Below, piece by piece: positions 3,642 to 55,685 of a stretch of DNA of 64,000 nt. The notes below the pieces were generated by a model. That model did not search any database. It was not told where the DNA came from and was given only the letters and a program-made list of their open reading frames with translations. The DNA is taken from contig CAZSOS010000001.1 of NCBI GenBank assembly GCA_964608605.1, positions 117,888 through 181,887 of the forward strand, in the 5' to 3' direction. The position numbers and the translations under genes are program-made. The stretch is from an uncultured Candidatus Saccharibacteria bacterium. GTDB taxonomy: Bacteria > Patescibacteriota > Minisyncoccia > Phycocordibacterales > UBA918. The stretch's first letter is position 1, and each line of letters opens with the position of its first letter.

Positions 3642-3719
3642 GCCACTAAATCACTCGCTCGGTAGTATATACGTCATTGAAAACTTGAGTAATTCTCATA
3701 ACTTTTAATTTGAGCGGAG

Positions 3720-3728
3720 TGTTATAAT
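3720..3728 (+). promoter_or_regulatory. extended -10 box TGtTATAAT 6 nt upstream of ddl ATG (leaderless arrangement)
   Basis: gtgTTATAATctccgtATG. Confidence 0.5.
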
Positions 3729-3734
3729 CTCCGT

Positions 3735-4697
3735 ATGAAAAACCTGCGGGTAGCGGTGCTTCGCGGCGGGCCGAGCGACGAGTATGACGTCTCGATGATG
3801 ACCGGCAGCGAGGTCATAGCTTCGCTCCGACGCCAAGGCGTCGATGTCGTCGACGTGATCATCAATAAGAAGGGTGAGTGGATGGTTCATGGCTTCATGA
3901 CCGAGCCCAAAGCTTTGGCGGTAGTGGCCGACGTGGCTTTCGTGGCGCTGCACGGGCAGTACGGTGAGGACGGCACGGTCCAACGTATCTTAGACAATGC
4001 CGGCATGCCTTATACCGGCAGCCGTGCGTATCCTTCGGCTTTGACGATGAATAAGATCCTTACTAAGGACGTGTTGCGCGCGGCCGGCGTGAAGACTCCG
4101 CCGCACTTGCGCGTCACTCGCGCCTCGACCGACGTGCGCCGCGTGGCCACCACCATCGAGTCGCTCTTTGGTCCCACCTACATAGTGAAGCCGATTAACA
4201 GCGGTTCGTCCGTTTCCACCTATAAGGCTAGCGGCGTGCACGAGCTGGTGCGCGCGCTCGCGAGCGCGCTTCGAGATCGCGATGAGGTCTTGGTGGAAAA
4301 ATACATCAAGGGTCGGGAGGCCACCGTGGGCGTGGTCGAAGGGCTGCGAGGGGAGTCGTTGTATCGCTTGCCGACGGTGGAGATCATACCACCGGCCTCG
4401 CACGGGTTCTTCGACCGCGACGTGAAGTACAACGGTGCCACCGAAGAGATATGTCCGGGCCGGTTCTCTCGTCAGGAAAAGCAAGATCTGGAGGAGGCCG
4501 CTTTAAAGGCTCACGGACTGCTCGGACTTTCACACTATTCTCGCAGTGACTTCATGGTCGCTGATGATGGTATCTATTTCCTGGAGACCAACACTTTGCC
4601 CGGACTCACGCGCGAATCACTGATCCCGAAAGCTTTGGCCGCTGTCGGACATTCTTATGACGACTTCATCATGCATCTCATCGAACGCGCGCGATGA
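3735..4697 (+). CDS. ddl: D-alanine--D-alanine ligase
   Basis: ATP-grasp family; N-terminal VAVLRGGPSDEYDVS, C-terminal FLETNTLPGLT motif characteristic of Ddl. Confidence 0.9.
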   Translation: MKNLRVAVLRGGPSDEYDVSMMTGSEVIASLRRQGVDVVDVIINKKGEWMVHGFMTEPKALAVVADVAFVALHGQYGEDGTVQRILDNAGMPYTGSRAYPSALTMNKILTKDVLRAAGVKTPPHLRVTRASTDVRRVATTIESLFGPTYIVKPINSGSSVSTYKASGVHELVRALASALRDRDEVLVEKYIKGREATVGVVEGLRGESLYRLPTVEIIPPASHGFFDRDVKYNGATEEICPGRFSRQEKQDLEEAALKAHGLLGLSHYSRSDFMVADDGIYFLETNTLPGLTRESLIPKALAAVGHSYDDFIMHLIERAR

Positions 4698-4752: not shown

Positions 4753-5397
4753 ATGAAGGAGACAACTACTAAAGAGAAGAAGAGCGTGACCACGAAGAAG
4801 CCGCGAGTTAGATCGGCCAAAGTGACTAGAGCAGAAGCGGCACCGGCTCACCAGGGCTCAAAAGGTGAGAATGAGAAAGCTATTCTGATATCGCTAGCTT
4901 ATCTGATCGGATTCTTGACGGCCTACATCGCCTTTTCTCTTAACGGCGGTACCACGGTCGAACATCAAAGATTGGCCGAGCATCGCCCTTATGCCCTGGC
5001 CGGATCCGAACAAGTAGCGGCGGCTAGTGGACGGGTCGGCATCCATAATGACGACGAGGGATTGTTCGTGGTCAATCATGGCCGTGAGCGCATCATCAGC
5101 GCCAAAATGAACGCTAGCGAATATGAACCAGGTTTTCACCGCGGCATCGCTTCCACCGCGGTATCGGGTGACGATAACTTCGTCCATTATTGCGCCATGA
5201 TGACGGTCTCGGATGATCAGTGTTCGCACTTCGTCTACGTGGTCGACGAGGACAAGGTCTATCGCGTGTCTCACGCTGGCGCGCCTCTCATTACCTCGAC
5301 CAACGAAGCTATGAACGCCGCCTGGTCCGACATCAATCTTCTCAGTGTTGGCGACCGAGTATCCGTGAACGCGGCCACCCCTTGGATCCTGGAGTGA
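4753..5397 (+). CDS. hypothetical membrane-anchored protein (Lys-rich N-terminus, one TM helix)
   Basis: ORF; no recognised domain. Confidence 0.45.
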   Translation: MKETTTKEKKSVTTKKPRVRSAKVTRAEAAPAHQGSKGENEKAILISLAYLIGFLTAYIAFSLNGGTTVEHQRLAEHRPYALAGSEQVAAASGRVGIHNDDEGLFVVNHGRERIISAKMNASEYEPGFHRGIASTAVSGDDNFVHYCAMMTVSDDQCSHFVYVVDEDKVYRVSHAGAPLITSTNEAMNAAWSDINLLSVGDRVSVNAATPWILE

Positions 5398-5790: not shown

Positions 5791-6216
5791 AAGACGCAAG
5801 GTGGCGTCCATGATCTCTTCCATGAACTCTCTCTTTCCCACGGGATTCGGTAGGAACACGCAGAAGAAACGAAATTCATTCACTGGCCGTCCGAAAGAAT
5901 TCACTTCCGGCTGACGGCAGACATGGGCGCGGCCGTCAGGCGTATCGACGTAATACTTCTTCGCTTTGTCGGTATAGTGCCATTTTGAATCATCAGGCAG
6001 CAGGACTCGCGCGCCTCCGATGCCCAGGTCTTTGAAGTCCGCGACCGGGCCGCAGTCGTTGTTCTCTTTGTCGCAGCAGCCCCAGATACCAAGTTTTTCT
6101 TGGATGGTCTGGTACCAGTGGTGGAAGTGATGATGGCCGGGAGCCACGTACTTTTCTTCGCTATTGGCGGCATAGATGCCGGCGAGCAGGAACAGAATGG
6201 CTGAAAGCGTTCGCAT
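5716..6216 (-). CDS. hypothetical secreted protein with signal peptide (166 aa)
   Basis: N-terminal MRTLSAILFLLAGIYAANS signal-like; His/Cys-containing; C-terminal 20 aa encoded by repeat copy 2 so true 3' end uncertain. Confidence 0.5.
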   Translation of the reverse strand: MRTLSAILFLLAGIYAANSEEKYVAPGHHHFHHWYQTIQEKLGIWGCCDKENNDCGPVADFKDLGIGGARVLLPDDSKWHYTDKAKKYYVDTPDGRAHVCRQPEVNSFGRPVNEFRFFCVFLPNPVGKREFMEEIMDATLRLEPAPTGAGFAFRIRGHESLCRIVR

Positions 6217-6940: not shown

Positions 6941-7786
6941 ATGAAGGCGTATCCATTAAATCATCAAAGTATGCGTGGCCCTCTACAACTTTTTAAGGAT
7001 TCCATCGCGCTGGTAAAAGAAAACTACTGGTTATTTATAGGGATTTTGGCAGGACCGATGTTTTTGTCCTACTTGGCCACTTTGTTCATGCCGCCGGAGA
7101 ATACTGGAGTAGCTAATCCTGGTGAATGGCTCATATACTCTGTGCTAATGCTAGTTTCCATTATGGCGAGTATTTTCGTGGGAGCAGCCTTGACCCTTGC
7201 GTTGAATGACAGGTCACTAACAGTGAAGCAAGCTTACTCAAGCGCCTTCCCATTGTTTTGGCGTTACTTCGGGGTCTCAATGATCGTTGGGTTCATTACT
7301 GGTGGTGTTATGCTGGCGACCTTCATGGTCAGTATGATCGTGGCGACTGTCTTCACAGGAAGCGGCCCTGCCGGTTTCGCCATGTTTTTTGTATATCTAT
7401 CTCTATTCGCGGTATTGTCGACTCTGATAGGTATTGCTGTTTCGACGTGGTTCGTCTTTGCTACTTTCGTAACGGTTCTTGAAAATGATTCTGTCTTAGA
7501 CTCAATAAAGCGTAGTAGACAATACGTAAGGGGTCGTTGGTTCGGAGTCTTTGGTAGGATCATGCTTCTGGGCCTGTTCGTGATTTTGGTAGGCGCAATT
7601 TTGGGTGGGCTTGTAGAGCTCTTCTTGGCCAAGAGTGCCGTCTCTGAGTTTTTGGTTCTTCTCATAAATCTAGCGATCATTCCCGTATTTGCTGGCTACG
7701 TTTACCTGATGTATCAGGATGTCAAAGGCAGCCCGACCATGGGCGCTGTCGATCTGGCTCCTGCTTCCGCCGCGGGAGGGCAGTAA
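6941..7786 (+). CDS. polytopic membrane protein, hypothetical (start ambiguous: 6902, 6941 or 6971)
   Basis: 6-7 hydrophobic helices; -10 box TGtTATAAT at 6927-6936. Confidence 0.5.
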   Translation: MKAYPLNHQSMRGPLQLFKDSIALVKENYWLFIGILAGPMFLSYLATLFMPPENTGVANPGEWLIYSVLMLVSIMASIFVGAALTLALNDRSLTVKQAYSSAFPLFWRYFGVSMIVGFITGGVMLATFMVSMIVATVFTGSGPAGFAMFFVYLSLFAVLSTLIGIAVSTWFVFATFVTVLENDSVLDSIKRSRQYVRGRWFGVFGRIMLLGLFVILVGAILGGLVELFLAKSAVSEFLVLLINLAIIPVFAGYVYLMYQDVKGSPTMGAVDLAPASAAGGQ

Positions 7787-7797
7787 GCGGGAAGTTC

Positions 7798-7840
7798 GTG
7801 GGTATAAAAAGGCGGCCCAAAGGGCCGCCTTTTTATACCC
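7798..7840. terminator. perfect palindromic terminator
   Basis: GGGTATAAAAAGGCGGCCCaaaGGGCCGCCTTTTTATACCC. Confidence 0.75.
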
Positions 7841-8678: not shown

Positions 8679-8821
8679 TCGTGATCAGACGGGAGTCAGG
8701 CTTCAGGCTTGGTTCCCGTCTGCTCGTGAGCAGATTATTTAATAGCACTTAGCACTTAGGTTTTAGCGGTTAGGTGTGCCAGCCAAGCTGGCACACCGTG
8801 CTAAGAACCAAGTGCTAATAA

Positions 8822-9064
<243 letters not shown>

Positions 9065-9226
9065 AACTCCCGAAATTGGCGGCCTCACGCCCGCTTCCCT
9101 CAGCGTTTCGGTCGCTGGACAATTTGTCCCGCTTCTCTCAACGCTTCAGTCCAGCGAGCGTGGTCCCATCCAATTTCGTAAGTTTAAGATCTATACGCTA
9201 TCAGCTATTCGCTAAACGCTAACCTT

Positions 9227-14521: not shown

Positions 14522-14555
14522 CAACGCCGCCGCCCGTAGGGCGGCGGCGTTTTCG
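14522..14555. terminator. rho-independent terminator after atpC
   Basis: AACGCCGCCGCCCgtaGGGCGGCGGCGTTTTCGG. Confidence 0.75.
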
Positions 14556-14556
14556 G

Positions 14557-14562
14557 TATAAT
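14557..14562 (+). promoter_or_regulatory. -10 box TATAAT 8 nt upstream of giant-protein ATG
   Basis: ggTATAATaaaagggtATG. Confidence 0.45.
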
Positions 14563-14570
14563 AAAAGGGT

Positions 14571-17500
14571 ATGCACCAAAGACGCGCCGCGTTTATCGGC
14601 GGTCTCAGTCTTTTTCTGTTAGTGTTGGCGATCTGCTTCTGCGTTGGCTTTGTTTTTTCAGCGCGTCAGACACCTGAAGAGAACGCGGTGAGTTCCGGTG
14701 TAGAAAAGGCAGAGCCGGTCTCGTTCTCTCCTTGGCGGACTCTCTTCTGCGGTCTGCGCTCGCTTGTCCTTTGGCCTTGTGCTGAACCGACTTCTCTCCC
14801 AGAACCTTCTATGCCCGCTCCAACCACTTCCATTGAGACGCGGCCGGTTCCGGCAGTCGATCTAGATGTCGCTACCACCTCTGCTTCAACCACGTCTTCT
14901 TCACCCTCCACCCAATACATAACTAACGAAACCATAGTCCGCCCCCTCGAACGCGAAATCATCCGCGAAATCACCATCCGCGACCAGGCCGTCGACACTT
15001 CCCGTTTCGTCACCCGTACTGAATATGATAGGCAAGTAGACGCGCTTCTGCGGTCCATTGAGAGTAAAGGTGGTAGTACCACTATAGTGGATCAAGGTGG
15101 CGGTGGAGGAGGTCCTGAAACCGACCCTGTCTTCATCGCTTCCGCCGCTTTTACCATTACTGGTGGTGATCTTTCTGATTGGAATCAGGCTTTTGGATGG
15201 GGTGATCACACCCAGGCTGGTTATCTAACTTCGTTCACCGAAAATGACCCACTTTTCTCCTCGTCCACCGCCGCTTCCATCACCAATACGGATGTCTCAA
15301 ATTGGAACCAATCTTTTGCTTCTTCAAGCGTGCTATCTATATCAGTGTCTGGTCTCATGGCGTCGTCGAGCGCTTGGGACCAGGCTTTTGGGTGGGGCGA
15401 CCACTCCCAAGCCGGATACCTCACTTCGTTCACCGAACTCGACCCCATCTTCAGCACCTCACCGGCCTTCGGCATCAGCGGCACCAATATCAGCAATTGG
15501 AATAGTACGTACACCACCGTCACCGCCTCCTCTTCACAGTGGGGAAGCGCGTACACCTTGGCCACTCTCTTGAACTCCGCTTCCTCCACCTGGAACCAAG
15601 CCTACTCCTGGGGCGACCACTCCACGGAGAACTACATCCAACAGAACACCGACGCCACTCTCGACAACGCCACCACCACCAACCTCACCACCAACACACT
15701 CACGCTCTCTGGAGCGCTCAAGACTGGTCTCTCAGACGGTTGCGTTGAAGTAGCTGGCGGTGTCCTCACTTCTCTGGGAGTGGCATGTGGCACTGGCGGC
15801 GGGGGACTGACAAACCTCAATGGCCTCACCTCTTCCTCGCAATCTTTCGCCACTTCCACTTCCGGCGGTCTTTCTCTTAACATCACCTCATCGGGAGGGG
15901 TACATACGTTTTCTGTGGGACTGCAGGCTGGTCGGACCCTGCCGCTTACCGCTAGTACCACTGAGTGGGCCAACATCAGGAACCTGGTCAACGCCTCCTC
16001 TTCACAATGGGGAAGCGCGTACACCTTGGCCAATCTCCTCAACAGCGCCTCCTCCACCTGGAACGCCGCCCATGCCTCCACCACCGCCCTCACGCCCTCG
16101 TACCTCCGCGGACTCTTCAATGCCGGTACCGGCCTCTCGTACGGCACCACCACTGGCACCTTCACCAACACCGGCGTCCTGTCGATCGGAGGGCTGAGCG
16201 GGAGCGTGGCGACGAGTTCGTTGGGGCTTGGTAACAATAGCTTCATCGGATTGTCCGACACCCCAGGTTCATATAACGCCGATCGCGTCTTGTTCACCAA
16301 TGCTGCCGGCAACGCTTTGACCGACTCCGCCAACTTCACCTATAACGGCAGCTCCGAGTTGCTGACGATCAGTGGCAACCTCGCCACCGGCTACGGCATC
16401 TCTTTGGGGTCTTCCGGAGGCATATATGCCAGTGAAGATATCCTGACCGCGGGCAACGGCATCAATATCATCGGTACCGAACACGCGGTTTTAAGGACCG
16501 GTAACGCTTACGTCTCTCTCACTGATGATGGAATCGATACTTTTGCCAATATTGCTGGTGATGGTGTCCAGCTCTACTCCCATTTTGATGACATCACCCT
16601 TCATTCCACTAATAACATCATTCTCACCGGCATCGGCAACGTCGGTATCGGCACCACCACGCCATCGCACAAGCTGACGGTGGCAGGAAACACTCTTATT
16701 GCTGGGAATGCCACTACTACGGGCAACCTAGTGGTGCAAGGGGCGGACATCGTGCTGGGAAACACTGGCATGGGTTACATAAGTAGTGCTTCAGGTGGAG
16801 TCTTGATCCTGGGGGGCGCCTCTAACGGTACCGGTGAAAATCTACGTTTTGATTTTGATATCAGTACTGGTCTTGATTTAGATGTGGTAACAGTAAGTTC
16901 TGGCACCGGTGCTAATCATTTGTTATTCCTCATGGGCCTGGAGACGATGGGAAATCTTAAGGTCGGCGGCAATATCACCGATGCTACCTGGCAGGGAAAT
17001 GATATCGACATCTCCGACTACACCAACCTCGGCGTCACCGCCACTGGTCTTTCTCTTTCTGGAGATAACATCGCTCTGACTGCTGGCTATTCCATACCAC
17101 TCACCTCTTCCACCTCAGAATGGACCACAGCGTATTCCTGGGGCGACCACGCCACGCAAGGCTACTTGACCGGCCTCGGCACTTCCACCTTCAACGGCAA
17201 CATTTCGATGGCCGGACATATCATTCCGGCGGCCGACATCACCTACGATCTCGGTTCACCCACTAGCATGTGGCGGGACGTCTACATCGGTCCGGGTTCT
17301 CTCTATATCAATGGCAAGAAGGTGTTGGAGGACGTGTCGGATACCATTACGTTGCGTACCGATCACAACCAGAATCTCGCGGTGCAGACCAGCGGTATCG
17401 GCAGTATTCATGTCAATGCTTCATCCACCGGCGGCATCACCATGGAGTCCATCTCAGGTAATATCAACATCACCTCCGCCTCTGGCAACCTCAACATCGG

Positions 17501-20500
17501 CACCACCGGCAGCGGTCAGCTCAACCTCGGCACCATTAACCAAGGCGTCTGGCACGGCACCGACGTCGACATCTCCGACTACACCAACCTCACCGTCTCT
17601 GCCACCGGCCTCACTTTGAACAACGACGCCATAGAGCTTGCTTCCGGCTATGCTATTCCACTCACCGCCAGCACCACTGAATGGATGAGCGCTCGCACTG
17701 ACGTGCTCGCGCTCACGGCCTCCTCCACCCTTTGGGATTCTTTCTACAACACCCCTTCATCCCGCCTCACCGCCGGCACCGGTCTCTACTGGAGCGGCAA
17801 TACTCTAAACGCTTCGTCGTCGGCTGACATCAACTACTGGACGTTGTCGGGAGGCAATGTTTATAGGGCTTCCGGCAATGTGGGTATCGGGACTTCCACT
17901 CCCGCTGCTAAGCTGGATGTTCAAGGTAGCTGGTTGCGTCTCCTTAATCCAAGTGGGGGATCGAGCATAACCTCGCAAAGCGTAGGAGGGGAGGCTATTT
18001 TCGCGGCGCGCAATTCGGCCAACGCTTGGACCTCCGGTGTAAACACCAGCGGACAGTATTTTATCTACGACGAGACCAATGCCAGCATACCTTTCCGTAT
18101 CTATCCTAGTTCTGCGAACAGTGTCATGTCAATCAATGGTAGTAATGTTGGTATCGGCACTACGACTCCGAACTCTAAGCTTCACCTAGCCGATGGATAC
18201 ATGCTTGTAACGCGCTCAGAGACCGCTAGTCAACCTAACTTTTATCAAGCCTTGAACTCCAGCGGCAGCGGCTTCGGTCTTAGATATACCGAGGATGCTA
18301 TCGGAAACATCCCGGCAGATGCCTGGCAGTTCAGATTATCCGGAACCAACGTCAGCCCGCTCATCTTCTCAACTTTCGACTCGACTCCGATCCTGACCAT
18401 GGCGACTTCCGGCAATATTGGCATTGGTACTACGACGCCTAACGCGGCGTTGGACATCAGTTCCACAGCTACGGGGGCTGTCACGGCAGCCTTCTTTAGA
18501 TCGAACCCAGGTGGTGCTGGGGCGGCGAATCAAAATACGATTGTGCTCGATAACCTGCAGGGTTCCGCTAACTTCAAAAATTCCATCCGACTCGCCAGTA
18601 ACGGGGCTTTGAAGTGGTCATTCGGAAATGATTACTACGGCGCTGGAGAGCAGAATTTCTTCATACATGACGCGGTATCCAACGCGGCGCGTCTCTTGAT
18701 AGATCCGGACGGCAACGTCGGTATCGGGACCACCAGTCCAAACAGTATCTTGAATATCAACACCGGCCTCTCCGGTTTTATGGGCCTTCCCGCACACGGC
18801 AGTGTAGGCTTCGGTAATTTCAGTTCTGGTAATACGGCACCTAGCATGATGGCCCGCTCGGATAATTCGACGGCCCTCCGTCTAATTAGCTTAGCAAGCA
18901 ATAGCAACACTGACGCCGACATGAACTTCGATGTCCGTGAGAACGACAACACCGACTTCGCCACCTTGACCAGTCAAGCGTTCAGCTTCAGCCGTTTTGG
19001 CAATAGCCTACTCACTATCCTACGCAGCGGCAACGTTGGCATCGGTACCTCGACGCCCAGTGCGAAGCTTAGTGTACAAGGCACCATTCGGGCAGAGAGT
19101 GTCTCATCCATTAGTACAGGGTCTGGCGTTGAAATCAACTACAACACCGGCACCGGACTCGGTAAGATCCAAGCCTATGATCGAGACGCAAGTACTTTTA
19201 AGGACTTGTGGCTAGATGGCTCTACGCTCACTCTCGCTACTGGCGGTGCTTCTCGCGTGACCATCCTTCCTTCTTCAGGAAATGTCGGTATAGGAACCAC
19301 TACTCCTCAAGCTACACTTCATCTCGGCACTTACGGCGCCACCCTCCGCCTCAATAGCCCAATAACTGGTTCTGGCATATACGGATACAATGACGCTAGT
19401 GGCGGTTTAGCTTACTCCTTCACGCGTCAATCCAACGACCTTCATATCACCGGCGCGACCGGCATCGGGTTCCAGTCTAACGCAGGTTCAGGCATAAATA
19501 CTGCTAGCACCTCGATGTATATCTCTTCCGCCGGCAACGTGGGCATCGGCACTACAACCCCAGCGAGCAGATTAAGCGTGTTTTCAACTGACAGCGTTAT
19601 CGCGGAATTCACCGCTTCGTCATCGGCAGCTACTCGAATGAAGCTAAATACCACAGGTTCCAATAAAAACGTGGGACTTAGTCTGGCAATAGACGGCATT
19701 ACTCGATGGACCAACGCCGCCTATCTCCCGAACGGGACTAACTATGACTACACGATATGGAATGACGCACTTAATAGTCCAGCCCTCCTCATTGACGGTG
19801 ACACGAACAACATCGGTATCGGCACCCTTAGTCCTGCATACAAACTCCATCTGGCCTCCGGCACGACGACGTTGGCCATGGTACCGTGGCAATCGGATGA
19901 TCTGGTAATACAAGGAGGTCTGGCAGAACAGAACGGCATCTCCATAGTCAACGGCTCCAATAAATACCTCACCTTCGTTGATGACAACATCGGCATCGGC
20001 CAGATCGGCTATTACTGGAACGGCAACATGAACTTCCTCACCGACGGCACGGAGCGAATGGTTATTAATGCCACCGGCAACGTCGGCATCGGGACCACAT
20101 CACCACTTACGAAACTCGACGTGAAGGGCTCGATCTTGATCGATCAAGGATCGAACGGACGTCTCATATTCAATAATTATACTTCTTTGTCAGATCATGG
20201 ACCATATATCGGCTACTCTACAGGTAACAATTCCATGGACATCGTGTCCGGAATGAACCCCAATGCCAATGGCGTTGGCACGGGTGGTATCCGCTTCGGT
20301 CGAGCCAGCGGTTCGTCGTGGGCCACGACCATGGTCATCGACGGCTCCGGATTGGTCGGTATAGGTACCTCAACACCTACACACAGTCTCACCGTAGGCG
20401 CGGTCAATTCGACCGTTGATCGGATTATCCGGGTCGTATCGCAAAATAACGTTGGCCTTATCCTTGAAGCCGATACGGATAATCTTACCGAGACACATAA

Positions 20501-21470
20501 CCCGTACGTGAAGATGTCGCAAGACGGTGGGGCGGTGGCTAGTATCATGGGTATGACCGGTGGTGCCAACATCGATCCTGAGGGTAATACCTTCACCGGC
20601 GGACACGATAATGCCCTGGTCTTGATCAACCAGTATGCCGGTTCAATACAGTTGGGTACTAACGGAGCTCCCCGGCTCTCTATCGTTTCTTCGGGTAATG
20701 TCGGCATCGGCGCCTTGTCTCCCTCCGCCCAACTCCACACCACCGGCACCGTCCGTTTCGCCAATTTCGGCGCCGGCACCCTCCAGACCGACGCCTCCGG
20801 CAACCTCTCAGTCTCCTCAGACACCCGTCTTAAAGACCTCGAAGGTACCTTCGACCGCGGACTCGAAGCCATCTTAGGCATAGAACCCATCATGTACCGC
20901 TGGAACGCCGCTTCCGGCTACGACCGTTCTACTCTATACGCCGGCTTCTCCGCCCAGAACGTGGAAGACTTCATCCCCGAAGCCGTGGGTACCAACCCTG
21001 ACGGTTTCCTCTCGTTGTCTGATAGACCGCTCCTGGCGGCGGTGATCAACGCGGTGAAGGAGATATACGGCCAATTGACGACTTTGTCCGATAAGATCGC
21101 TGGCTTTGCCGACAGCTTTATGTCCGCCAGCATCACCGCCACCGACAGGATCTGCGTGGGAGACACATGCGTTACCGAAGGTGAGTTGAAGGCCGTGTTG
21201 GATATGGTCGGTAGCAATGGTGGAGGCTCTAACGATGGAAATGGCAGCTGGGGCGGATCTTCCGGCGGCGGCGACACCACGACCGGTACTTCGACCGCCT
21301 CCACCACGCCGCCGGTTACCTCGACCTCGACACCGCCCGCCACTCCCGTATTAGGCTGTATGGACCCTCTGGCTTCGAACTTTGCTCCCGCGGCCACGGA
21401 GGATGATGGTTCGTGCGTATTTCCGCCCGCGCCGCCGGACGAGTCGGCCACCACCACTCCGGCGGAGTGA
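14571..21470 (+). CDS. giant secreted/surface repeat protein (2299 aa): N-terminal TM/signal, Pro/Thr-rich linker, tandem repeat modules, ~12 GNVGIGTTTP-type repeats, C-terminal phage tailspike-like intramolecular chaperone (peptidase S74-like) domain and Cys motif tail
   Basis: uninterrupted ORF; internal repeats visible at protein level; SSDTRLKDLEG...IMYRWNAASGYDRSTLYAGFSAQNVEDFIPEAV motif near C-terminus. Confidence 0.85.
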   Translation: MHQRRAAFIGGLSLFLLVLAICFCVGFVFSARQTPEENAVSSGVEKAEPVSFSPWRTLFCGLRSLVLWPCAEPTSLPEPSMPAPTTSIETRPVPAVDLDVATTSASTTSSSPSTQYITNETIVRPLEREIIREITIRDQAVDTSRFVTRTEYDRQVDALLRSIESKGGSTTIVDQGGGGGGPETDPVFIASAAFTITGGDLSDWNQAFGWGDHTQAGYLTSFTENDPLFSSSTAASITNTDVSNWNQSFASSSVLSISVSGLMASSSAWDQAFGWGDHSQAGYLTSFTELDPIFSTSPAFGISGTNISNWNSTYTTVTASSSQWGSAYTLATLLNSASSTWNQAYSWGDHSTENYIQQNTDATLDNATTTNLTTNTLTLSGALKTGLSDGCVEVAGGVLTSLGVACGTGGGGLTNLNGLTSSSQSFATSTSGGLSLNITSSGGVHTFSVGLQAGRTLPLTASTTEWANIRNLVNASSSQWGSAYTLANLLNSASSTWNAAHASTTALTPSYLRGLFNAGTGLSYGTTTGTFTNTGVLSIGGLSGSVATSSLGLGNNSFIGLSDTPGSYNADRVLFTNAAGNALTDSANFTYNGSSELLTISGNLATGYGISLGSSGGIYASEDILTAGNGINIIGTEHAVLRTGNAYVSLTDDGIDTFANIAGDGVQLYSHFDDITLHSTNNIILTGIGNVGIGTTTPSHKLTVAGNTLIAGNATTTGNLVVQGADIVLGNTGMGYISSASGGVLILGGASNGTGENLRFDFDISTGLDLDVVTVSSGTGANHLLFLMGLETMGNLKVGGNITDATWQGNDIDISDYTNLGVTATGLSLSGDNIALTAGYSIPLTSSTSEWTTAYSWGDHATQGYLTGLGTSTFNGNISMAGHIIPAADITYDLGSPTSMWRDVYIGPGSLYINGKKVLEDVSDTITLRTDHNQNLAVQTSGIGSIHVNASSTGGITMESISGNINITSASGNLNIGTTGSGQLNLGTINQGVWHGTDVDISDYTNLTVSATGLTLNNDAIELASGYAIPLTASTTEWMSARTDVLALTASSTLWDSFYNTPSSRLTAGTGLYWSGNTLNASSSADINYWTLSGGNVYRASGNVGIGTSTPAAKLDVQGSWLRLLNPSGGSSITSQSVGGEAIFAARNSANAWTSGVNTSGQYFIYDETNASIPFRIYPSSANSVMSINGSNVGIGTTTPNSKLHLADGYMLVTRSETASQPNFYQALNSSGSGFGLRYTEDAIGNIPADAWQFRLSGTNVSPLIFSTFDSTPILTMATSGNIGIGTTTPNAALDISSTATGAVTAAFFRSNPGGAGAANQNTIVLDNLQGSANFKNSIRLASNGALKWSFGNDYYGAGEQNFFIHDAVSNAARLLIDPDGNVGIGTTSPNSILNINTGLSGFMGLPAHGSVGFGNFSSGNTAPSMMARSDNSTALRLISLASNSNTDADMNFDVRENDNTDFATLTSQAFSFSRFGNSLLTILRSGNVGIGTSTPSAKLSVQGTIRAESVSSISTGSGVEINYNTGTGLGKIQAYDRDASTFKDLWLDGSTLTLATGGASRVTILPSSGNVGIGTTTPQATLHLGTYGATLRLNSPITGSGIYGYNDASGGLAYSFTRQSNDLHITGATGIGFQSNAGSGINTASTSMYISSAGNVGIGTTTPASRLSVFSTDSVIAEFTASSSAATRMKLNTTGSNKNVGLSLAIDGITRWTNAAYLPNGTNYDYTIWNDALNSPALLIDGDTNNIGIGTLSPAYKLHLASGTTTLAMVPWQSDDLVIQGGLAEQNGISIVNGSNKYLTFVDDNIGIGQIGYYWNGNMNFLTDGTERMVINATGNVGIGTTSPLTKLDVKGSILIDQGSNGRLIFNNYTSLSDHGPYIGYSTGNNSMDIVSGMNPNANGVGTGGIRFGRASGSSWATTMVIDGSGLVGIGTSTPTHSLTVGAVNSTVDRIIRVVSQNNVGLILEADTDNLTETHNPYVKMSQDGGAVASIMGMTGGANIDPEGNTFTGGHDNALVLINQYAGSIQLGTNGAPRLSIVSSGNVGIGALSPSAQLHTTGTVRFANFGAGTLQTDASGNLSVSSDTRLKDLEGTFDRGLEAILGIEPIMYRWNAASGYDRSTLYAGFSAQNVEDFIPEAVGTNPDGFLSLSDRPLLAAVINAVKEIYGQLTTLSDKIAGFADSFMSASITATDRICVGDTCVTEGELKAVLDMVGSNGGGSNDGNGSWGGSSGGGDTTTGTSTASTTPPVTSTSTPPATPVLGCMDPLASNFAPAATEDDGSCVFPPAPPDESATTTPAE

Positions 21471-22093: not shown

Positions 22094-25000
22094 TTATTTC
22101 TTAGTGGCCTCTTTCGCCAAATGCCGGTATGACAGCAGCGGGATAAGCACCAGCGTGAGGAGGGTGCCGTAGATAAGGCCAAAGGCGATGGTGTACGCCA
22201 GAGGCGCCCACATCTCGGACACAAAGACCAGCGGCACCATGCCGATCATGGTGGTGATGGTGGTGAGCAGGATCGGACGCAGGCGGCTTTCGGCGGCCGC
22301 TAGCACGACCTCCTTCGGTCCGCGAGCCGATCCATCCGCCTGAAGATTGTTAAGCACGTCCAGAAGCAGGATGCCGTGATTGATAATGACGCCGCCGAGC
22401 GCGATGATACCGAGGAAGGCAGTCAAAGACAGTGGCTGTCCCATGAGGAAAAGTCCGATCAGGACGCCGGTTAGCGAGAGCGGAATGGCCAAGAGCAAGC
22501 GGAGCGTGGTCCGGAAGGCATTGAACTCCAGCACCAGCACCGCGAACATGAGCACTAGTCCGGCCACCAAGGCGACCATCATTTCGGTGAAAGTGCGTTT
22601 TATCTCCTCGTCGTCGCCACCGTAGGTGAAACGGACCCCTTCGGGAACATCGAGCGCCTCGATCTTGGCTCGGATCGCGGCCGTTACCTCGATGGCGTTG
22701 GCGCCTTCTTCCACTTGAGCGCTCACCGTACCGATGCGCTTACCATCCTCATGGCTGATAGCGGCGCTGGCCCGGTCAGCCGTGACGTTTATGAGAGAGC
22801 CGAGCGGTATGATGCCGCGAGCGGTGTTGATGGGCGCTCTGGAAACGGCGTCGATGTCGGCGATGCTGGCGTCTTCCGGCTGGATGTAGCCTGGATTTAA
22901 TCCCGCGATCACCCGGACCGAAAGATCGTCGCCCGCCACGCGGATCTTGGTGGCTTCGGTACCGGAGATGGCCGCGCGCAGGGCGAAGGCCACGTCCATG
23001 GCCGACAGACCGTATGACGAAGCTTTGGCCCGGTCGATATCGATCTGGATCTCGGTGCCATCACTGGAAAGGGAAGAGGTGACGTCGCGGGCTCCAGACT
23101 CGGCCGCCATCAGCCGTTCCACCTGCTCAGTGGCGGTGGCCAGCGTGGTGGCGTCGTCGCTCCAGACCTGCACCACAATGGGAGCGCCCGAAGGCGGTCC
23201 GCCGGCGGTCTCGGAGACGGTGACGCGCGCGCCGTTCATGCCCTGAAGCGGCGCTAGACGTCCGCGCAACCTATCGGCTATGGCCATCGAGGTCTCTTCC
23301 GTCTCCCGGTCTTTAGAAAGATTGACCGTGATATTAGCGATCTTGGCGCCAGAGTTGCCGCTGCCGCTGAAGGCGCTGCCGGCGCCGACGGTGGTGAGAT
23401 AGGACTCTACTGACGGCTCAAGGGCCACTATCTTCTCGATCTCGCGAGCGACGTCGTCGGTCTTAGACAGGGTCGAAGCCTGCGGCAATTCGATCTCGAT
23501 ATAGAAGAAATCCATGTCCGAAGGCGGAAACATGATCGACTTCAGCAGTCCCGTGGTCGGCAAGAGCAGGGCGGCGATAAAAGAGACCGTCAAAAAGGCG
23601 TAGAAGATCTTTTGCATGGGGCGGCTATCCAAGAGCCGTTCCAGACGTTCCCGGTACCAGCCGCTGACCGAGCGCCAGAGTCTCTCTCTCAGGGCGGCGA
23701 AACGGCTGACCTCATGCTTCATGACCCACATGGCGATAAGCGGCACGAAGCCAAGCGCCACGGCGATGGATGCCAAGAGGACGACGATGATGGTGAAGGG
23801 GATGGCCTTCAAGAATTGACCCATGATGCCGGTAAGGAAGAAGAGCGGCACGAAGACGGCCACCGTGGTCATGGTGCCGGCAATCAAGGGCCAAGCGAAC
23901 TGCCTGATAGCCTTTCGAGCGGCCGCAAGTTTGTCCAGGCCCTTTTCGCGGTTGGTATGGATGGCCTCCACCACCACGATGCCGGAATCCACCAGAATAC
24001 CGATGGCGATGACCAGCGCGAAGAGCGAGATGAAGTTGATGGAATTACCGGTGGCCCACATCCCCAAGAAAGCGATCATGAAAGAGAAAGGGATCGAGAG
24101 GGCTGACACAATGGCCTCGCGCAGGCCGACCGTGAGGAAAAGCACCAAGACCACGAGGATGATGGTGTCGCGACCGGCGTGCAAGAGCTCGGAAATGCTC
24201 TTCTTCACCTCCTCGCCGGCGTCGTAGATGATGACGTGATCAGAGCCAAGCAGCAGGGTATCGGAAAGCTCCTGGAGGCGTTCATGGACGCGCTCGCTGA
24301 CGGAGAGGATGTTGCCGCCGGAAGATTTGTAGACGTTGAGGTTCAGCGCGTAGGCCGGCTCTTCTCCGGCGTCGGAAAGCCGGGAGATGGTCATGGTGGG
24401 CGAAAAGCCGTCGACGATCCTGGCCACTTGATCGAGGCGGACCTCGCCGCTAGGAGTACGGACCGGTACGGCGGCCACTTCTTCGACGGACTTCAGGTCG
24501 CCGTTGAACTGCACCGGGTATTCGATCTCATCGATCCGCAAAGCGCCGGCGGGCACCGAGGCGTTGGCGCTTTGTAGGGCGGCGACGATGTTGGAGGTGG
24601 TGATGTTATGGGCCGCCAGGGCTTGCAGGTCGACGACCACTGAAACTTCCCGGGCGCGGGTGCCGGTAACGTCTACCTTGGAGACGTCCGGCAAGGTAAG
24701 CAGATCGTTCTGTAGATCCTGACCCAATTTGGTGAGGGTCTCTGGAGCCAGATCGCTCGAGATGCCGATCATGAGGACCGGTTGGTCCTGGAAGTCGATC
24801 TTGGTCACGGTCGGCACTTCGGCGTCGGACGGGAGTTCGCGCCGCGCGCCTTCGACGGCGTTGCGCAGATCTTGGATGGCGGTCTCGATGTCGGCACTGG
24901 CGATGAACTGGGCGGTGATCATCGACACGCCCTGGCGGGAGCTCGAGGTCACCTTGTCGATGTCGGGCACGTTCATCACGGCCGGTTCGAGCTTATCGGT

Positions 25001-25192
25001 CACCAGGCGCTCGATATCGGCGGCGGTGGCTCCAGGCAGCACCGTCGTTACTATGCCGATGGGGATGACCACTTCAGGCGTGGATTCCTTCGGCATGGAC
25101 AATATGGCCGCCGTACCCGAGGCCAGCAAAGCCACCATCAATAGGATGGTGAAGGCGCGGCGGTCAAGAAAGAAGTTCCAGAGGAAATACAT
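22094..25192 (-). CDS. RND-family efflux transporter permease (AcrB/HAE1-like), 1032 aa
   Basis: 12-TM architecture with two large periplasmic loops; typical AcrB-family conserved stretches. Confidence 0.9.
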   Translation of the reverse strand: MYFLWNFFLDRRAFTILLMVALLASGTAAILSMPKESTPEVVIPIGIVTTVLPGATAADIERLVTDKLEPAVMNVPDIDKVTSSSRQGVSMITAQFIASADIETAIQDLRNAVEGARRELPSDAEVPTVTKIDFQDQPVLMIGISSDLAPETLTKLGQDLQNDLLTLPDVSKVDVTGTRAREVSVVVDLQALAAHNITTSNIVAALQSANASVPAGALRIDEIEYPVQFNGDLKSVEEVAAVPVRTPSGEVRLDQVARIVDGFSPTMTISRLSDAGEEPAYALNLNVYKSSGGNILSVSERVHERLQELSDTLLLGSDHVIIYDAGEEVKKSISELLHAGRDTIILVVLVLFLTVGLREAIVSALSIPFSFMIAFLGMWATGNSINFISLFALVIAIGILVDSGIVVVEAIHTNREKGLDKLAAARKAIRQFAWPLIAGTMTTVAVFVPLFFLTGIMGQFLKAIPFTIIVVLLASIAVALGFVPLIAMWVMKHEVSRFAALRERLWRSVSGWYRERLERLLDSRPMQKIFYAFLTVSFIAALLLPTTGLLKSIMFPPSDMDFFYIEIELPQASTLSKTDDVAREIEKIVALEPSVESYLTTVGAGSAFSGSGNSGAKIANITVNLSKDRETEETSMAIADRLRGRLAPLQGMNGARVTVSETAGGPPSGAPIVVQVWSDDATTLATATEQVERLMAAESGARDVTSSLSSDGTEIQIDIDRAKASSYGLSAMDVAFALRAAISGTEATKIRVAGDDLSVRVIAGLNPGYIQPEDASIADIDAVSRAPINTARGIIPLGSLINVTADRASAAISHEDGKRIGTVSAQVEEGANAIEVTAAIRAKIEALDVPEGVRFTYGGDDEEIKRTFTEMMVALVAGLVLMFAVLVLEFNAFRTTLRLLLAIPLSLTGVLIGLFLMGQPLSLTAFLGIIALGGVIINHGILLLDVLNNLQADGSARGPKEVVLAAAESRLRPILLTTITTMIGMVPLVFVSEMWAPLAYTIAFGLIYGTLLTLVLIPLLSYRHLAKEATKK

Positions 25193-25277
25193 AAGTTAGG
25201 GTGAAGGGTATAGGGTAAAGGGTAAGTGGGGTTGGTGAGATCGGGGCGCGGCGGCTTCGCCGCCGCGCCCCGATCTC

Positions 25278-26600
25278 TTATCGAACCGTTACCGTGTCGC
25301 CGGCCTTGAGACCGCGCACGTCCTTGACTATCGTTTCGGTGCCGGTTAGACCGCTGACGCGCAAAGATCCGGCGGTGACCAACCCTGTCTCGACGGCCAC
25401 GCTATTCACCTTGCCATCCTCTCCCAATGTGAACACGAAGGCGCCTTCCGGAGTGTATTTGACGGCGGACAGCGGCAGGTCGAAATAGCTCTCGGTCTCC
25501 GCTCCGTTGTCAGGAACGATGATGGCGACGTCGGAACCAGGGTTGATGAAATCTCCGACGATGACGTTGAGGGAAGAGATCTCACCGGCAAAGGGAGCGC
25601 GGACCACGGTCTTGTTGTAGGCGTTCTGCGCGGCCCGATAGGCGCCAAGCGCTTGTTTTACCTGGGCGTCAGCGGCGGAGACGGCTCCGCCAGTGCCACC
25701 GATCTCGGCGCCTCGAAGATTCTCCTCGGCGCGGGTCAGGGACACCTGAGCGGCTTCCAGACTGGCCCGCTGCGCGTTTAGGGTGGCGCGAGCGCCAGCG
25801 AAGCTTGATTGCAGGCGACCCAACTCGGCGGTCGAGAAGACGGCGTCCGGCTTATGAAGTGGCAGCAAGGCGATGAACCCATCCACCAAGCGGATGAGCT
25901 GATCGACCCGGCTGATGCTCTGACCGAGGGCGGAGATGAGCGCGCTGCTATTCTGGTCGGCGCTGAGGCGAGCGCTATCGCGCTGCCAGACTTCGAGAGC
26001 TTGGCCCAGGGCGACCCTCTGTGCTCCCAGTTCGGTGGCGGCACCAACGGCGTCGATGCGCACGCCGGGGTTGCCGAGACGGGGATTGGAGAACAGCTCG
26101 TCGACGGTGTTGAAAAGCACCGAGTTCCAAGCCGTGAAAGCGGCCTGGTCGGCGCTGACCGCTCCTTGCTTGGCGGAGGTTAGGGCGGCTCCAGCGTCAT
26201 CGACGCCGATATCGCTGCGACGGGCGGCGGCCAAAGCGGCCTCGTAGACGCCCTCGGCTTGAAGTAAGGCGGCCCGCTGTGCCGCGTTGTCGATCTCGGC
26301 GATCACGGTGCCTTGAGCCACTCTGCCGGAACGGCCGACGCGATCCACGCGACCGCCGCTTTCGGCTCGTACCACGAAGGAACGTCCGTCAGCGGTAGGG
26401 GCGGCGATACCCAGGGCCCCGCTCTGATAGTCGGAAACGTTCAAGACCTCGACAGTTCGGACGGCCTCCTTGGCCTCTTCCTCGGATCCCTCGCCGCCGG
26501 TGAACAGCCAAGAGACGATCAGTACCAAGGCCAATCCTAAGATAAAAGCGACGGCCCAGACCGTCCTTTTTCCGAACCTCCCGTAAAGCTTTTGAAGCAT
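25278..26600 (-). CDS. efflux pump periplasmic adaptor (HlyD/membrane fusion protein family)
   Basis: N-terminal TM anchor, long Ala-rich coiled coil, C-terminal beta-barrel motifs; immediately upstream of RND gene on same strand. Confidence 0.8.
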   Translation of the reverse strand: MLQKLYGRFGKRTVWAVAFILGLALVLIVSWLFTGGEGSEEEAKEAVRTVEVLNVSDYQSGALGIAAPTADGRSFVVRAESGGRVDRVGRSGRVAQGTVIAEIDNAAQRAALLQAEGVYEAALAAARRSDIGVDDAGAALTSAKQGAVSADQAAFTAWNSVLFNTVDELFSNPRLGNPGVRIDAVGAATELGAQRVALGQALEVWQRDSARLSADQNSSALISALGQSISRVDQLIRLVDGFIALLPLHKPDAVFSTAELGRLQSSFAGARATLNAQRASLEAAQVSLTRAEENLRGAEIGGTGGAVSAADAQVKQALGAYRAAQNAYNKTVVRAPFAGEISSLNVIVGDFINPGSDVAIIVPDNGAETESYFDLPLSAVKYTPEGAFVFTLGEDGKVNSVAVETGLVTAGSLRVSGLTGTETIVKDVRGLKAGDTVTVR

Positions 26601-27422: not shown

Positions 27423-27455
27423 AAAGACCGGCGCGAAGCGCCGGTCTTTCTTTTA
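27423..27455. terminator. rho-independent terminator
   Basis: AAAGACCGGCGCgaaGCGCCGGTCTTTCTTTT. Confidence 0.7.
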
Positions 27456-27798: not shown

Positions 27799-27910
27799 TT
27801 TGAGTATCAACAGGACCGCGTCATTGATACGACGTCTTTTCTGTTAGACTGTATTCATCGTTAATTTTGATTTCGAAATTGATTCAAAATTGAGAATTCA
27901 AAATTAGAAA

Positions 27911-28498
27911 TTGTTTCATATGTCTAAAAAAATCCTGGTGCTGCTCGGCCATCCCGACAAGGACACCTATTCCGGCCAGATGGCCGACCGCTACGAGCAG
28001 GCGGTCCGGGCCGCGGGTCATGAAGTTCGTCGAGTCAATTTAGGGGAGATGCAGTTCGATCCGATACTCCATAAGGGATACAAGGAGATCCAGGCCCTGG
28101 AACCGGATCTGGTAACGCTGCAGGAACAGTTCCGGTGGGCCGAACATATCGTTATCGTATATCCGAACTGGTGGAATACCATGCCGGCCCTGCTCAAAGG
28201 CCTCTTCGACCGCATGTGGCTCCCCGGCTTCGCCTTCAATTTTGACAAGGAGACCAAAAAACTGATCCAGCGTCTTGACGGCAAGACTGCCAGAGTGATC
28301 ATTTTGGCCGGCACGCATAGCCCATTCCAGACGTGGTGGAAGTTCGGCGACTACACCAACGAGATCCAATACGGCATCCTGGAGTTCGCCGGTATCGAAA
28401 CCAAGGTCTCGGCCTTCGGCCCTTGCGAAAAGGTGGACGGTGTCTGTCGCGAAAAGTGGTTAGGGCAAATCGAGTCACTAGCGAAAAGGGGTGCGTAA
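27911..28498 (+). CDS. flavodoxin-like NAD(P)H dehydrogenase (quinone) family protein
   Basis: KILVLLGHPDKDTYSGQMA ... YPNWWNTMPALLKGLFDRMW pattern of Flavodoxin_2/NQO-like proteins. Confidence 0.75.
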   Translation: MFHMSKKILVLLGHPDKDTYSGQMADRYEQAVRAAGHEVRRVNLGEMQFDPILHKGYKEIQALEPDLVTLQEQFRWAEHIVIVYPNWWNTMPALLKGLFDRMWLPGFAFNFDKETKKLIQRLDGKTARVIILAGTHSPFQTWWKFGDYTNEIQYGILEFAGIETKVSAFGPCEKVDGVCREKWLGQIESLAKRGA

Positions 28499-42123: not shown

Positions 42124-42172
42124 AGGAAAGCGCGGGCCGGCCCGCGCTTTTTCGAATGCTATAATCAGACAC

Positions 42173-42970
42173 ATGGAATTCGCCAAGAGATACAATCCCG
42201 ACCGTTCGCCCGATTGGAACTACGGCGGCCAGAAGTGGCGGCTGTCGCGTTCCAAGATCGATCTGTTCATCGAGTGTCCGCGCTGCTTCTATATCGACAA
42301 CAAGCTGGGGACCAAGCGTCCGGGCATGCCGTCTTTCAACCTCAACATCGCCGTCGACGAACTCTTCAAGAAGGAGTTCGACGTGCATCGGAAGAACGGC
42401 ACGCCGCATCCGATCATGACCAGGTACGGCGTCCAGGCCGTGCCGTTCTCACACCCTAAGATGGACGAGTGGCGCGATCCTTTCGCGGGCGTGTCGCATC
42501 TCCATGAAGCCACCGGGCTCGTGGTCTGCGGCGGCGTCGACGACCTCTGGCAGGCGGCCAACGGGAAGATCATCGTGGTCGACTACAAAGCCACTTCCAA
42601 GGCCGAGCGCATCGAGAAGCTCGGCGACTCGCCCTGGGAAAAGCAGTACCAGCGCCAACTCGGAGTCTATCGTTGGCTGCTGGAACACAACGGCTTCGAG
42701 GTCGAGGACCTGGGTTATCTGGTCTATGCCAACGCCTCAAAAGAAGAGGACGCCTTCGACGACAAGCTGACGTTCGAGACCACTTTGGTGGAATGTCCCA
42801 CCATGACCGACTGGATAGAGCCCACCCTGGCCAAGATCAAGTCCTGCCTCGAGGGTGACGCGATCCCGCCTTCGGGAGACGGCTGCGAATATTGTCCTTA
42901 TCGAGAGGCCTCGGGAAAGAAGCTCATGTCTTTGCATCTCCAGGCTAAGAAGTTAAAATCAAAAGGTTGA
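42173..42970 (+). CDS. Cas4-like/RecB-family PD-(D/E)XK nuclease with 4 Cys
   Basis: SRSKIDLFIECPRCFY N-terminal motif, GGVDDLW, IVVDYK, QYQRQLGVYRWLL (QxxxY), C-terminal CEYCPY. Confidence 0.7.
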   Translation: MEFAKRYNPDRSPDWNYGGQKWRLSRSKIDLFIECPRCFYIDNKLGTKRPGMPSFNLNIAVDELFKKEFDVHRKNGTPHPIMTRYGVQAVPFSHPKMDEWRDPFAGVSHLHEATGLVVCGGVDDLWQAANGKIIVVDYKATSKAERIEKLGDSPWEKQYQRQLGVYRWLLEHNGFEVEDLGYLVYANASKEEDAFDDKLTFETTLVECPTMTDWIEPTLAKIKSCLEGDAIPPSGDGCEYCPYREASGKKLMSLHLQAKKLKSKG

Positions 42971-50654: not shown

Positions 50655-50665
50655 AGCTATAGAAT

Positions 50666-50782
50666 ATGAAAGTAAAATCTTCCATCAAAAAACGCAGCCC
50701 CGACGATATCATCGTTCGTCGCCGCGGCAAGATCTACGTCATCAACAAGCGAAAGCCGCGCCATAAGCAGCGTCAAGGATAA
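50666..50782 (+). CDS. rpmJ: 50S ribosomal protein L36 (38 aa), not in supplied ORF track
   Basis: [38 protein letters not shown] matches L36 family; sits between infA and rpsM as in canonical cluster. Confidence 0.85.
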
Positions 50783-55076: not shown

Positions 55077-55079
55077 CGT

Positions 55080-55085
55080 TATAAT
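55080..55085 (+). promoter_or_regulatory. -10 box TATAAT 9 nt upstream of grpE ATG; palindromic TTATAA core also reads as -10 for divergent minus-strand gene
   Basis: cgTTATAATgcgggagttATG. Confidence 0.4.
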
Positions 55086-55094
55086 GCGGGAGTT

Positions 55095-55643: not shown

Positions 55644-55685
55644 CAAACTTACTAAGAGCTAATTGCTAATAACTAAGAGCTATCT

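Follow-up and report, generated by a model that had tools for sequence, protein, structure and literature searches.

The window analysed here is a stretch of 64,000 nucleotides from an uncultured Candidatus Saccharibacteria bacterium (assembly GCA_964608605.1, contig CAZSOS010000001.1, positions 117,888 to 181,887), and it contains three short G-rich tracts. One lies between the genes of an RND efflux permease and its periplasmic adaptor (locus 1), another between dnaK and dnaJ (locus 2), and the third follows dnaJ (locus 3). The preliminary description of this DNA grouped them as repeats of the form GGGT(N)AAGGG and as potential G-quadruplexes (G4s); it had their sequences, positions and gene context right. 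The repeat can be defined more sharply. The three sites are almost certainly imperfect heptanucleotide tandem-repeat arrays, a form of simple sequence repeat (SSR), with the unit (A/T)CCCTNN present in 4-5 copies at each. A wider population of period-7 arrays exists in this Patescibacteria (Paceibacteria-like) genome, which is poor in Shine-Dalgarno (SD) sequences, and the three sites are its C/G-rich members. They are best classed with the intergenic heptamer repeats already known from other bacteria, to which they add a case in Patescibacteria.

The sense strand of locus 1 reads CCCCACTTA, followed by CCCTTTA, CCCTATA, CCCTTCA and CCCT, and then by AACTT and the ATG of the permease gene. On the + strand the same array appears as AGGG at 7-nt steps (25198-25224), followed by a GGGG tract up to 25231. 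The + strand of locus 2 reads CCCTGAACCCTAATCCCTTTACCCT at 57579-57603. In all three arrays the period is strictly 7 nt, (A/T)CCCT is fixed and about two positions are free; neighbouring units vary at 2-3 of the 7 positions, and the base preceding CCCT is A or T in every unit. The three loci thus do form one repeat family, as had been proposed. Their period-7 z-scores range from 2.9 to 4.5, and the program TRF calls period 7 at locus 1.

Within the window, such arrays are far more frequent than chance would predict. When the window was scanned for at least three G3 tracts with 1-5 nt spacers, each of the three loci gave five tracts, and the remainder yielded just two trivial runs of three; CCCTNNNCCCT, even as two units, does not occur outside the three loci in the 64 kb. 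In 200 second-order Markov simulations of the window, runs of at least four G3 tracts appeared 0.145 times on average and at most twice, compared to three observed, and (CCCTNNN)2CCCT, which is present three times in the 64 kb, was absent from all simulations. All three arrays are intergenic, with loci 1 and 2 abutting start codons and locus 3 following a stop codon. Some 11-13-mers are shared between the arrays (CCCTTTACCCTAT, CCCTTCACCCT, ACCCTGAACCCT), and no claim of common descent is made from them, because with CCCT fixed and the loops A/T-biased about one shared loop per pair is expected by chance.

The wider population was detected by a k-mer recurrence test, which scores 4-mers with three or more occurrences, and 3-mers with four or more, spaced at a fixed period. 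This test is needed because strict scoring of whole-unit tandem repeats (at least 80% identity) misses these arrays. The window contains 10 period-7 arrays, compared to about 1.2 in shuffled sequence, and periods 5, 8, 10 and 11 remain at background; several intergenic period-7 arrays are listed independently by TRF. Besides the CCCT loci there are about six further arrays with the non-G units CTAAnnn, CTAnnnn, ATTnnnn and TAGnnnn. They have the same length, as all period-7 arrays of the window are 4-5 units long. For seven of the ten, the distance from the array to a start codon downstream on the sense strand is 0-13 nt, and we estimate that period-7 arrays fill roughly 40% of the longer intercistronic spacers. 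An excess of lag-7 and lag-14 autocorrelation is found in the 35 nt upstream of 40 genes, and it persists without the CCCT loci. Coordinates of the arrays and of their neighbours are given in Table 1.

Table 1. Heptamer arrays, hairpins and neighbouring genes (window coordinates, except for the last row)
Feature	Position	Strand	Remarks
Locus 1 heptamer array	25198-25231	- (sense)	four CCCT units at 25198-25222; CCCC unit reaching 25231
RND efflux permease gene	22094-25192	-	ATG 25190-25192, 5 nt past the locus 1 array, which is its leader
RND periplasmic adaptor gene	25278-26600	-	upstream cistron; 85-nt junction to permease
Hairpin at locus 1	25237-25277	-	perfect, GC-rich, 19 bp; 3-nt loop; GCGAAGC core; no U tract
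Locus 2 heptamer array	57579-57603	+	CCCTGAA CCCTAAT CCCTTTA CCCT, 4 units; period-7 z = 4.5
dnaK	55686-57536	+	upstream of locus 2
dnaJ	57604-58677	+	ATG 57604 abuts the locus 2 array (0 nt); stop 58675-58677
Hairpin at locus 2	57549-57571	+	10-bp GC stem; GAA loop; GCGAAGC core; no U tract
Locus 3 heptamer array	58684-58715	+	AGGG x 5 on dnaJ sense strand; C-rich on - strand; z = 4.0
Hairpin after dnaJ (locus 3)	58717-58745	+	13-bp GC stem; GAA loop; GCGAAGC core
CCCTACT	58755-58761	+	complementary to last locus 3 unit, AGTAGGG; extends the predicted stem around the hairpin
Extended -10-like sequence TGCTAAAAT	58785-58803	+	then 7 nt, then ATG 58801 of the next gene
Sister array (nnnCTAA) x 5	55652-55682	+	no G tracts; fills grpE-dnaK spacer up to dnaK ATG 55686; z = 3.7
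Sister element, (TAGnnnn) x 5, hairpin, (nnGCTAA) x 3-4	8743-8832	+	hairpin 8773-8797; upstream of ATP synthase c-subunit gene, ATG 8838
Sister array (CTAnnnn) x 5	9191-9221	+	ends 5 nt before ATG 9227; z = 4.9
Sister array (ATTnnnn) x 5	27882-27912	+	ends 8 nt before ATG 27921; z = 3.1
TTAA period-7 array			before ATG 12726
Period-7 arrays of L028 (L028 coordinates)	813-844, 1328-1352, 4461-4485, 4861-4892, 5942-5966, 7499-7528

The arms of the sister element at 8743-8832, (TTAGCAC)n and (GTGCTAA)n, are inverted copies of one another. The element is a long imperfect palindrome around a GC hairpin, with a predicted stem of about 30 bp (-43.5 kcal/mol, z = -5.3). Stop codons in all three frames are found in the CTAA- and ATT-type leaders, namely those of dnaK, the ATP synthase c-subunit gene and the gene at 27921. 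A three-frame stop-codon cassette was considered for the CCCT leaders too, and fails, as these have stops in only 1 and 2 frames. The motif CTAAC(C)TT directly precedes the ATG in otherwise unrelated leaders, as CCCTAACTT-ATG, CGCTAACCTT-ATG and CACTAACTT-ATG (window 25193-25197 and 9222-9226; L001:9991-10000). A 19-bp terminator stem at 7800-7840 (GGGTATAAAAAGGCGGCCC / GGGCCGCCTTTTTATACCC) has the outer ends GGGTATA and TATACCC, equal to one CCCTATA repeat unit. The remark in the preliminary description that two of the three loci flank heat-shock genes is right as to their position beside dnaJ, but the link looks incidental: other arrays precede ATP-synthase genes and the efflux pump.

Every CCCT array is positioned 1-13 nt from a perfect GC-rich hairpin, which the preliminary description does not mention, and the order on the C-rich strand is the same at all three loci: hairpin, C array, gene boundary. 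The hairpin of locus 1 begins directly past the adaptor stop codon (25278-25280), and the 116-nt region is predicted to fold with -47.6 kcal/mol (z = -8.8). That of locus 2 is located 12 nt past the dnaK stop codon and is conserved in two of the relatives described below, L001 and L198. At these two loci the C-rich strand is the mRNA strand, no SD sequence precedes the ATG of the permease gene or of dnaJ, and the C-rich stretch fills the 32-44 nt between the intercistronic hairpin and the SD-less start codon. RNA folding prediction leaves both C arrays unpaired between the hairpin and the AUG. The module of locus 3 is inverted. Here the G-rich strand is in the 3' untranslated region (UTR) of dnaJ, between the stop codon and the hairpin; the array lies about 6 nt past the stop codon and 1 nt ahead of the hairpin, and a weak U-rich tail (UUGUGGUUAU) follows.

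C/A-rich sequence without a U tract follows the hairpins of loci 1 and 2, and a terminator scan returned no intrinsic terminator at these sites. Intrinsic (Rho-independent) terminators were rejected for both loci on account of the missing U tract. The four array-adjacent hairpins of the window lack flanking A/T tracts, and its canonical A-stem-T terminators lack arrays. In a comparison to Rfam only a tRNA in the window reaches the gathering score, and the loci give sub-threshold matches to generic hairpins. A GCGAAGC core (GCTTCGC on the other strand) is common to many of the hairpins (25253-25261, 57556-57564, 58727-58735 and 27432-27440, and the L001 and L198 orthologues). In the window it is the usual loop of terminator-like stems; as DNA, GCGAAGC is an exceptionally stable mini-hairpin.

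The genome has few SD sequences and appears to have many leaderless genes. The best named homologues of its DnaJ and RND proteins belong to Kaiserbacteria, Paceibacterota and Parcubacteria (60-70% identity). Only 4 of the 40 genes in the window have an SD core, and in 16 of the 40 a -10-like TAnnnT, often in the extended form TGnTAnAAT, ends 5-9 nt before the ATG, an arrangement of the leaderless type. SD-less leaders are thus the norm. The G content of the leaders is 15%, compared to 28% overall. Leaderless-type arrangements are seen, for example, at 3717-3737, 14555-14573, 42157-42175, 55077-55097 and 58785-58803, the last of which is conserved in L002 and L200.

Three other signals were considered for the arrays and rejected, the last of them as a general explanation: 1) CCCTGAA-N14-CCCTAT, and CCCTTGAT-N14-CCCATTAT in L002, only resemble a heat-shock promoter of the sigma-32 type, because the -10-like part abuts the dnaJ ATG and transcription would start inside the gene; 2) TATACC and TAATCC, candidate -10 boxes within the arrays, do not end in the invariant T; 3) a Rho loading (rut) site on C-rich unstructured RNA is not a general explanation, because Cyanobacteria share the polarity of the repeats and yet are not known to have Rho.

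Comparison with relatives, which were gathered via their DnaJ and RND homologues, shows how the arrays change. At the dnaK-dnaJ junction, the same hairpin precedes (nnACCnn)3 in L001 (84% DnaJ identity), L198 (72%) has a hairpin followed by (CTTnCTA)5 with a period-7 z-score of 4.5, and L002 (79%) has a degenerate series of CCCT, TCCT and CTCT; no array was found at this junction in L197, L199 and L200. The grpE-dnaK spacers of L001 and L198 carry period-7 CTAA or CCTAA arrays; L002 is a marginal case there, with p = 0.06 for period 7 and 8 as the best period. Both junctions retain period 7 and position while the unit turns over. Such turnover is the pattern expected of continuing slippage and homogenisation, either with or without selection.

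The G array after dnaJ is absent in all relatives compared, and the hairpin there is conserved in L001, L197 and L200. In the infA-rpmJ junction of L198 (L198:2968-3052) there is an insertion of about 95 nt, which consists of (GTAGnnn)3, a stem and (CTACnnn)4, where the window has only 13 nt (50655-50667). The two arms of this palindrome agree at 17 of 18 positions when one of them is inverted. The adaptor-RND spacer of L202 resembles a decayed (CCTnnnn)3 by eye, with a period-7 score that is not significant (p = 0.24). A 2299-residue open reading frame (ORF) with a C-terminal Peptidase_S74 domain (endosialidase / tail-fibre chaperone; residues 2083-2139) is located between atpC and the RND locus of the window (14571-21470, +), and a gene of such size is missing there in L201-L205.

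In another Parcubacteria genome, L028, 8 kb of sequence contain six period-7 arrays, and (CCCTNNN)4-5 accounts for three of them. Each of these three lies a short way upstream of a gene and has its C-rich strand in sense, so that in the window and L028 together the C strand is sense in all five gene-proximal CCCT arrays. Two of the L028 CCCT arrays share a divergent intergenic region and point outward in it. The other arrays of this genome include (AAGAGAT)5 and also (ACTGATG)4, which has a stop codon on one side and a terminator hairpin on the other.

These observations suggest that the heptamer arrays are made by slippage and are tolerated, or used, as G-poor unstructured leaders, an account that we hold as a whole with moderate confidence. 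Replication slippage in short intergenic spacers would create the arrays and homogenise them, and this origin is likely. Where arrays flank a hairpin, hairpin-templated copying would probably create the inverted arms. Where the transcribed strand is G-poor, the genome would tolerate the arrays and may make use of them. As a G-poor repeat tract cannot fold, the RNA between a stable stem-loop and the SD-less AUG would be single-stranded, and its length would suit a standby or landing region from which the ribosome could initiate independently of an SD sequence. Such a leader or standby role is put forward tentatively, with the balance leaning somewhat against it. The stem-loop that follows the upstream cistron is probably a stabiliser of the mRNA 3' end or a processing site, rather than a terminator. 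The inverted copy at locus 3 would have no translational role; it would lengthen the terminator stem or be neutral.

Several observations weigh against this account. Slippage normally gives near-identical units, whereas 3 of 7 positions vary here. The two CCCT leaders are 48% C, whereas typical leaders of this genome are A/T-rich, and a plain unstructured leader fails to explain why the unit is CCCT. Locus 3 is opposite in orientation to loci 1 and 2. Two of the CCCT arrays of L028 are located upstream of -10-like boxes of apparently leaderless genes, and would thus be outside the mRNA leader. The module is also dispensable: the dnaK-dnaJ spacer of L197 is 21 nt long, and the adaptor-RND junction, 85 nt in the window, measures 2-29 nt in five relatives. 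The hairpin and array at that junction represent a lineage-specific insertion that is dispensable for expression of the pump. Finally, the closest sampled relatives show no general lag-7 signal, and the array load thus varies by genome.

The main rival explanation, which we regard as rather unlikely, is that the arrays are neutral by-products of slippage in places where a compact genome tolerates extra bases, their placement and orientation reflecting only purifying selection against harm. It is kept alive by the insertion at locus 1, with the module missing from the same junction of relatives, by the inverted locus 3, and by the L028 arrays upstream of -10 boxes. The sporadic distribution of the arrays among close relatives and the differences in unit sequence from site to site speak for it too, and no function was found for the comparable repeats of Xanthomonas and Nostoc (PMC4692102). 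Neutrality accounts less readily for the recurrence of period-7 arrays at grpE-dnaK and dnaK-dnaJ in species with only 72-84% DnaJ identity, for the share of the longer intercistronic spacers that arrays occupy in a streamlined genome, and for the consistent orientation of the gene-proximal CCCT arrays.

It is also conceivable, but improbable, that the period-7 arrays between an intercistronic stem-loop and a start codon are a dedicated signal for SD-independent initiation, which is selected while its unit drifts. They may then act as a standby platform for the ribosome, or be recognised by a protein that covers about 7 nt, such as S1 or a cold-shock protein, and CCCT may be one allele of the signal. 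Another proposal, to which we give little credence, is that the arrays bind a single-strand nucleic-acid-binding protein of this kind, which would recruit ribosomes to SD-less cistrons or regulate them. The arrays abut SD-less start codons in the sense orientation and retain period 7 while their units drift, and the published TAACTGA arrays of Beggiatoaceae, for which such readers were proposed, have the same placement (PMC4679880). However, one sequence-specific reader would not suit units as different as CCCT, CTAA, ATT and ACC, locus 3 has the inverse orientation, and some of the L028 arrays are apparently upstream of the promoter -10.

The G4 reading of the preliminary description is borne out as far as the motif goes. 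Each locus carries a canonical (G3N4)4-5 motif, with G4Hunter scores of 1.59, 1.40 and 1.47 at loci 1, 2 and 3 (above about 1.2). Like the canonical intramolecular G-quadruplex motif, the arrays have G3+N1-7 at least four times and a moderate score; they differ in that the G4 is putative here, and in that the transcript strand is C-rich at two loci. Related heptamers fold into G4s in vitro and prefer four units (PMC4692102), and the G strands of the present arrays would probably fold in K+ in vitro as well.

As an explanation of the arrays, the G4 reading has several observations against it. Regulatory G4s in the DNA of the template strand would hinder RNA polymerase ahead of dnaJ and the RND gene, and an RNA or non-template G4 would lie in the dnaJ 3' UTR; on the evidence, this reading has little chance of being correct. 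The G-rich strand is the template at loci 1 and 2, so that the mRNA there carries CCCU repeats and cannot form an RNA G4; G4s that form during transcription generally favour the non-template strand. Non-G period-7 arrays of equal length occupy equivalent positions by start codons or hairpins, and neither the length of 4-5 units nor the position therefore needs a G4. The orthologous dnaK-dnaJ arrays have non-G units, ACC in L001 and CTA in L198. Folding prediction pairs the G-rich RNA of locus 3 with the CCCUACU downstream of the hairpin, which would compete with a G4. The G4 potential of the arrays is genuine on paper, follows from the CCCT unit and is probably incidental to their existence.

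Least probable is that hairpin and array constitute a small mobile element, or a palindromic element akin to repetitive extragenic palindromes (REP) or miniature inverted-repeat transposable elements (MITE), that inserts at gene junctions: the long junction at locus 1, the inverted heptamer arrays inserted around a stem at infA-rpmJ of L198 and the palindrome upstream of the ATP synthase c-subunit gene would suit such an element, but the hairpin stems share nothing beyond the GCGAAGC loop core, which ordinary terminators have too, terminal inverted repeats and target duplications were not seen, and the dnaK-dnaJ and post-dnaJ hairpins persist in relatives without CCCT/AGGG arrays, so that hairpin and array are separable.

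The CCCT unit is found well beyond Patescibacteria. At least 120 stretches of the genome collection contain (CCCTNNN)3CCCT, a number that shows breadth and not frequency per genome; the matches listed include Acidobacteriota, Cyanobacteria, Planctomycetota, Gemmatimonadota, Bacteroidota, Proteobacteria and other phyla. For 112 arrays among the matches listed, and with noisy ORF calls behind the counts, the G-rich strand is sense in 42 cases and the C-rich strand in 14 within 30 nt after a stop codon, and the corresponding numbers upstream of a start codon are 27 C-sense and 21 G-sense. A metagenome scan with DnaJ returned distant relatives only (at most 53% identity), which served as background and not for orthology. 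These distant dnaJ loci, 745 kb in total, contain 82 period-7 arrays, compared to 18-36 for periods 5, 8, 10 and 11, and in about 5 of 54 of them a significant period-7 array directly precedes dnaJ. Units such as ATACAAA, CCAAnnn, AATTGCn and ATTCnTn are found directly upstream of dnaJ in L158:189-283, L130:191-312, L131:666-697, L140:9964-9988 and L150:9974-9997, and the L158 arrays form an inverted pair.

The closest published counterparts are the heptamers described by Rehm et al. in 2015, GGGAATC in Xanthomonas and GGGGA(C/T)T in Nostoc (PMC4692102). These favour arrays of four units, lie in spacers between co-oriented genes, and occur in transcripts of either strand. In the 50 bp upstream of an ORF their G-rich strand is the antisense strand, and in the 50 bp that follow a stop codon it is the sense strand; repeats such as (GGGAATC)4 form G4s in vitro (PMC4692102). 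The arrays of the window resemble these repeats, which include the cyanobacterial short tandemly repeated repetitive (STRR) sequences, in having a 7-nt head-to-tail unit with one G3-4 tract, in about four copies. They are likewise intergenic between co-oriented genes, and their inverted copies can form stem-loops. They also follow the orientation rule exactly, as loci 1 and 2 are antisense 0-5 nt before an ATG and locus 3 is sense after a stop codon. The differences are the unit, which is AGGGTNN / NNACCCT and not GGGAATC; its imperfection, with only 4-5 of 7 positions fixed, although the published sets also hold mutated repeats; the host, which has a small SD-poor Patescibacteria genome and not a large one; and the adjoining GC hairpins and coexisting non-G period-7 arrays in equivalent places. 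According to a preprint on Nostoc, heptamer repeats affect the expression of recF and recO (10.1101/2022.06.06.494920).

The TAACTGA repeats of marine Beggiatoaceae, some Cyanobacteria and Bacteroidetes are the second counterpart. MacGregor (2015) described arrays of 2-6 copies that abut SD-less start codons, also in ribosomal and housekeeping operons, suspected a translational role, and proposed S1, Csp (cold-shock protein) or CsrA as readers (PMC4679880). The same placement, forward and a few nucleotides from a start codon that lacks a canonical ribosome-binding site, is found at loci 1 and 2 and at four sister arrays, and not at locus 3. The units of the window are CCCTNNN or CTAAnnn rather than TAACTGA, although the CTAAnnn arrays and the CTAAC(C)TT-ATG endings resemble the TAACT core. 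One unit dominates the published genome, whereas the window has many.

According to the survey of long SSRs (units of 5-11 nt) by Mrazek in 2007, as it is cited in PMC4679880 and PMC4692102, heptamers are the commonest class in prokaryotes, are sporadic in phylogenetic distribution and possibly arise by polymerase slippage. These features are shared by the arrays described here. As cited, that survey predates Patescibacteria genomes and concerns long and perfect repeats, whereas the arrays of the window are short and degenerate. Among the papers listed in the library that was searched, none connects such repeats with Patescibacteria.

Heptanucleotide repeats have been known for years in cyanobacteria, Xanthomonas and Beggiatoaceae, and have no accepted function. 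The question of function is easier to approach in the present organism, with its tiny, streamlined and largely SD-less genome, where arrays are positioned exactly between hairpins and starts and period 7 is kept across species. The organism and its relatives thus offer a compact comparative system for deciding whether such arrays are translational leaders or slippage debris. They also carry a warning against reading bacterial G4 motifs as functional, as the repeat class to which these G4-capable arrays belong consists mostly of sequences that cannot form a G4. The most useful lead is the set of varied period-7 arrays between intercistronic hairpins and SD-less starts, which recur at the same junctions across species. 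Were they to prove a dedicated initiation signal, the heptamer repeats, unexplained in cyanobacteria since 1990, would become a testable translational device.

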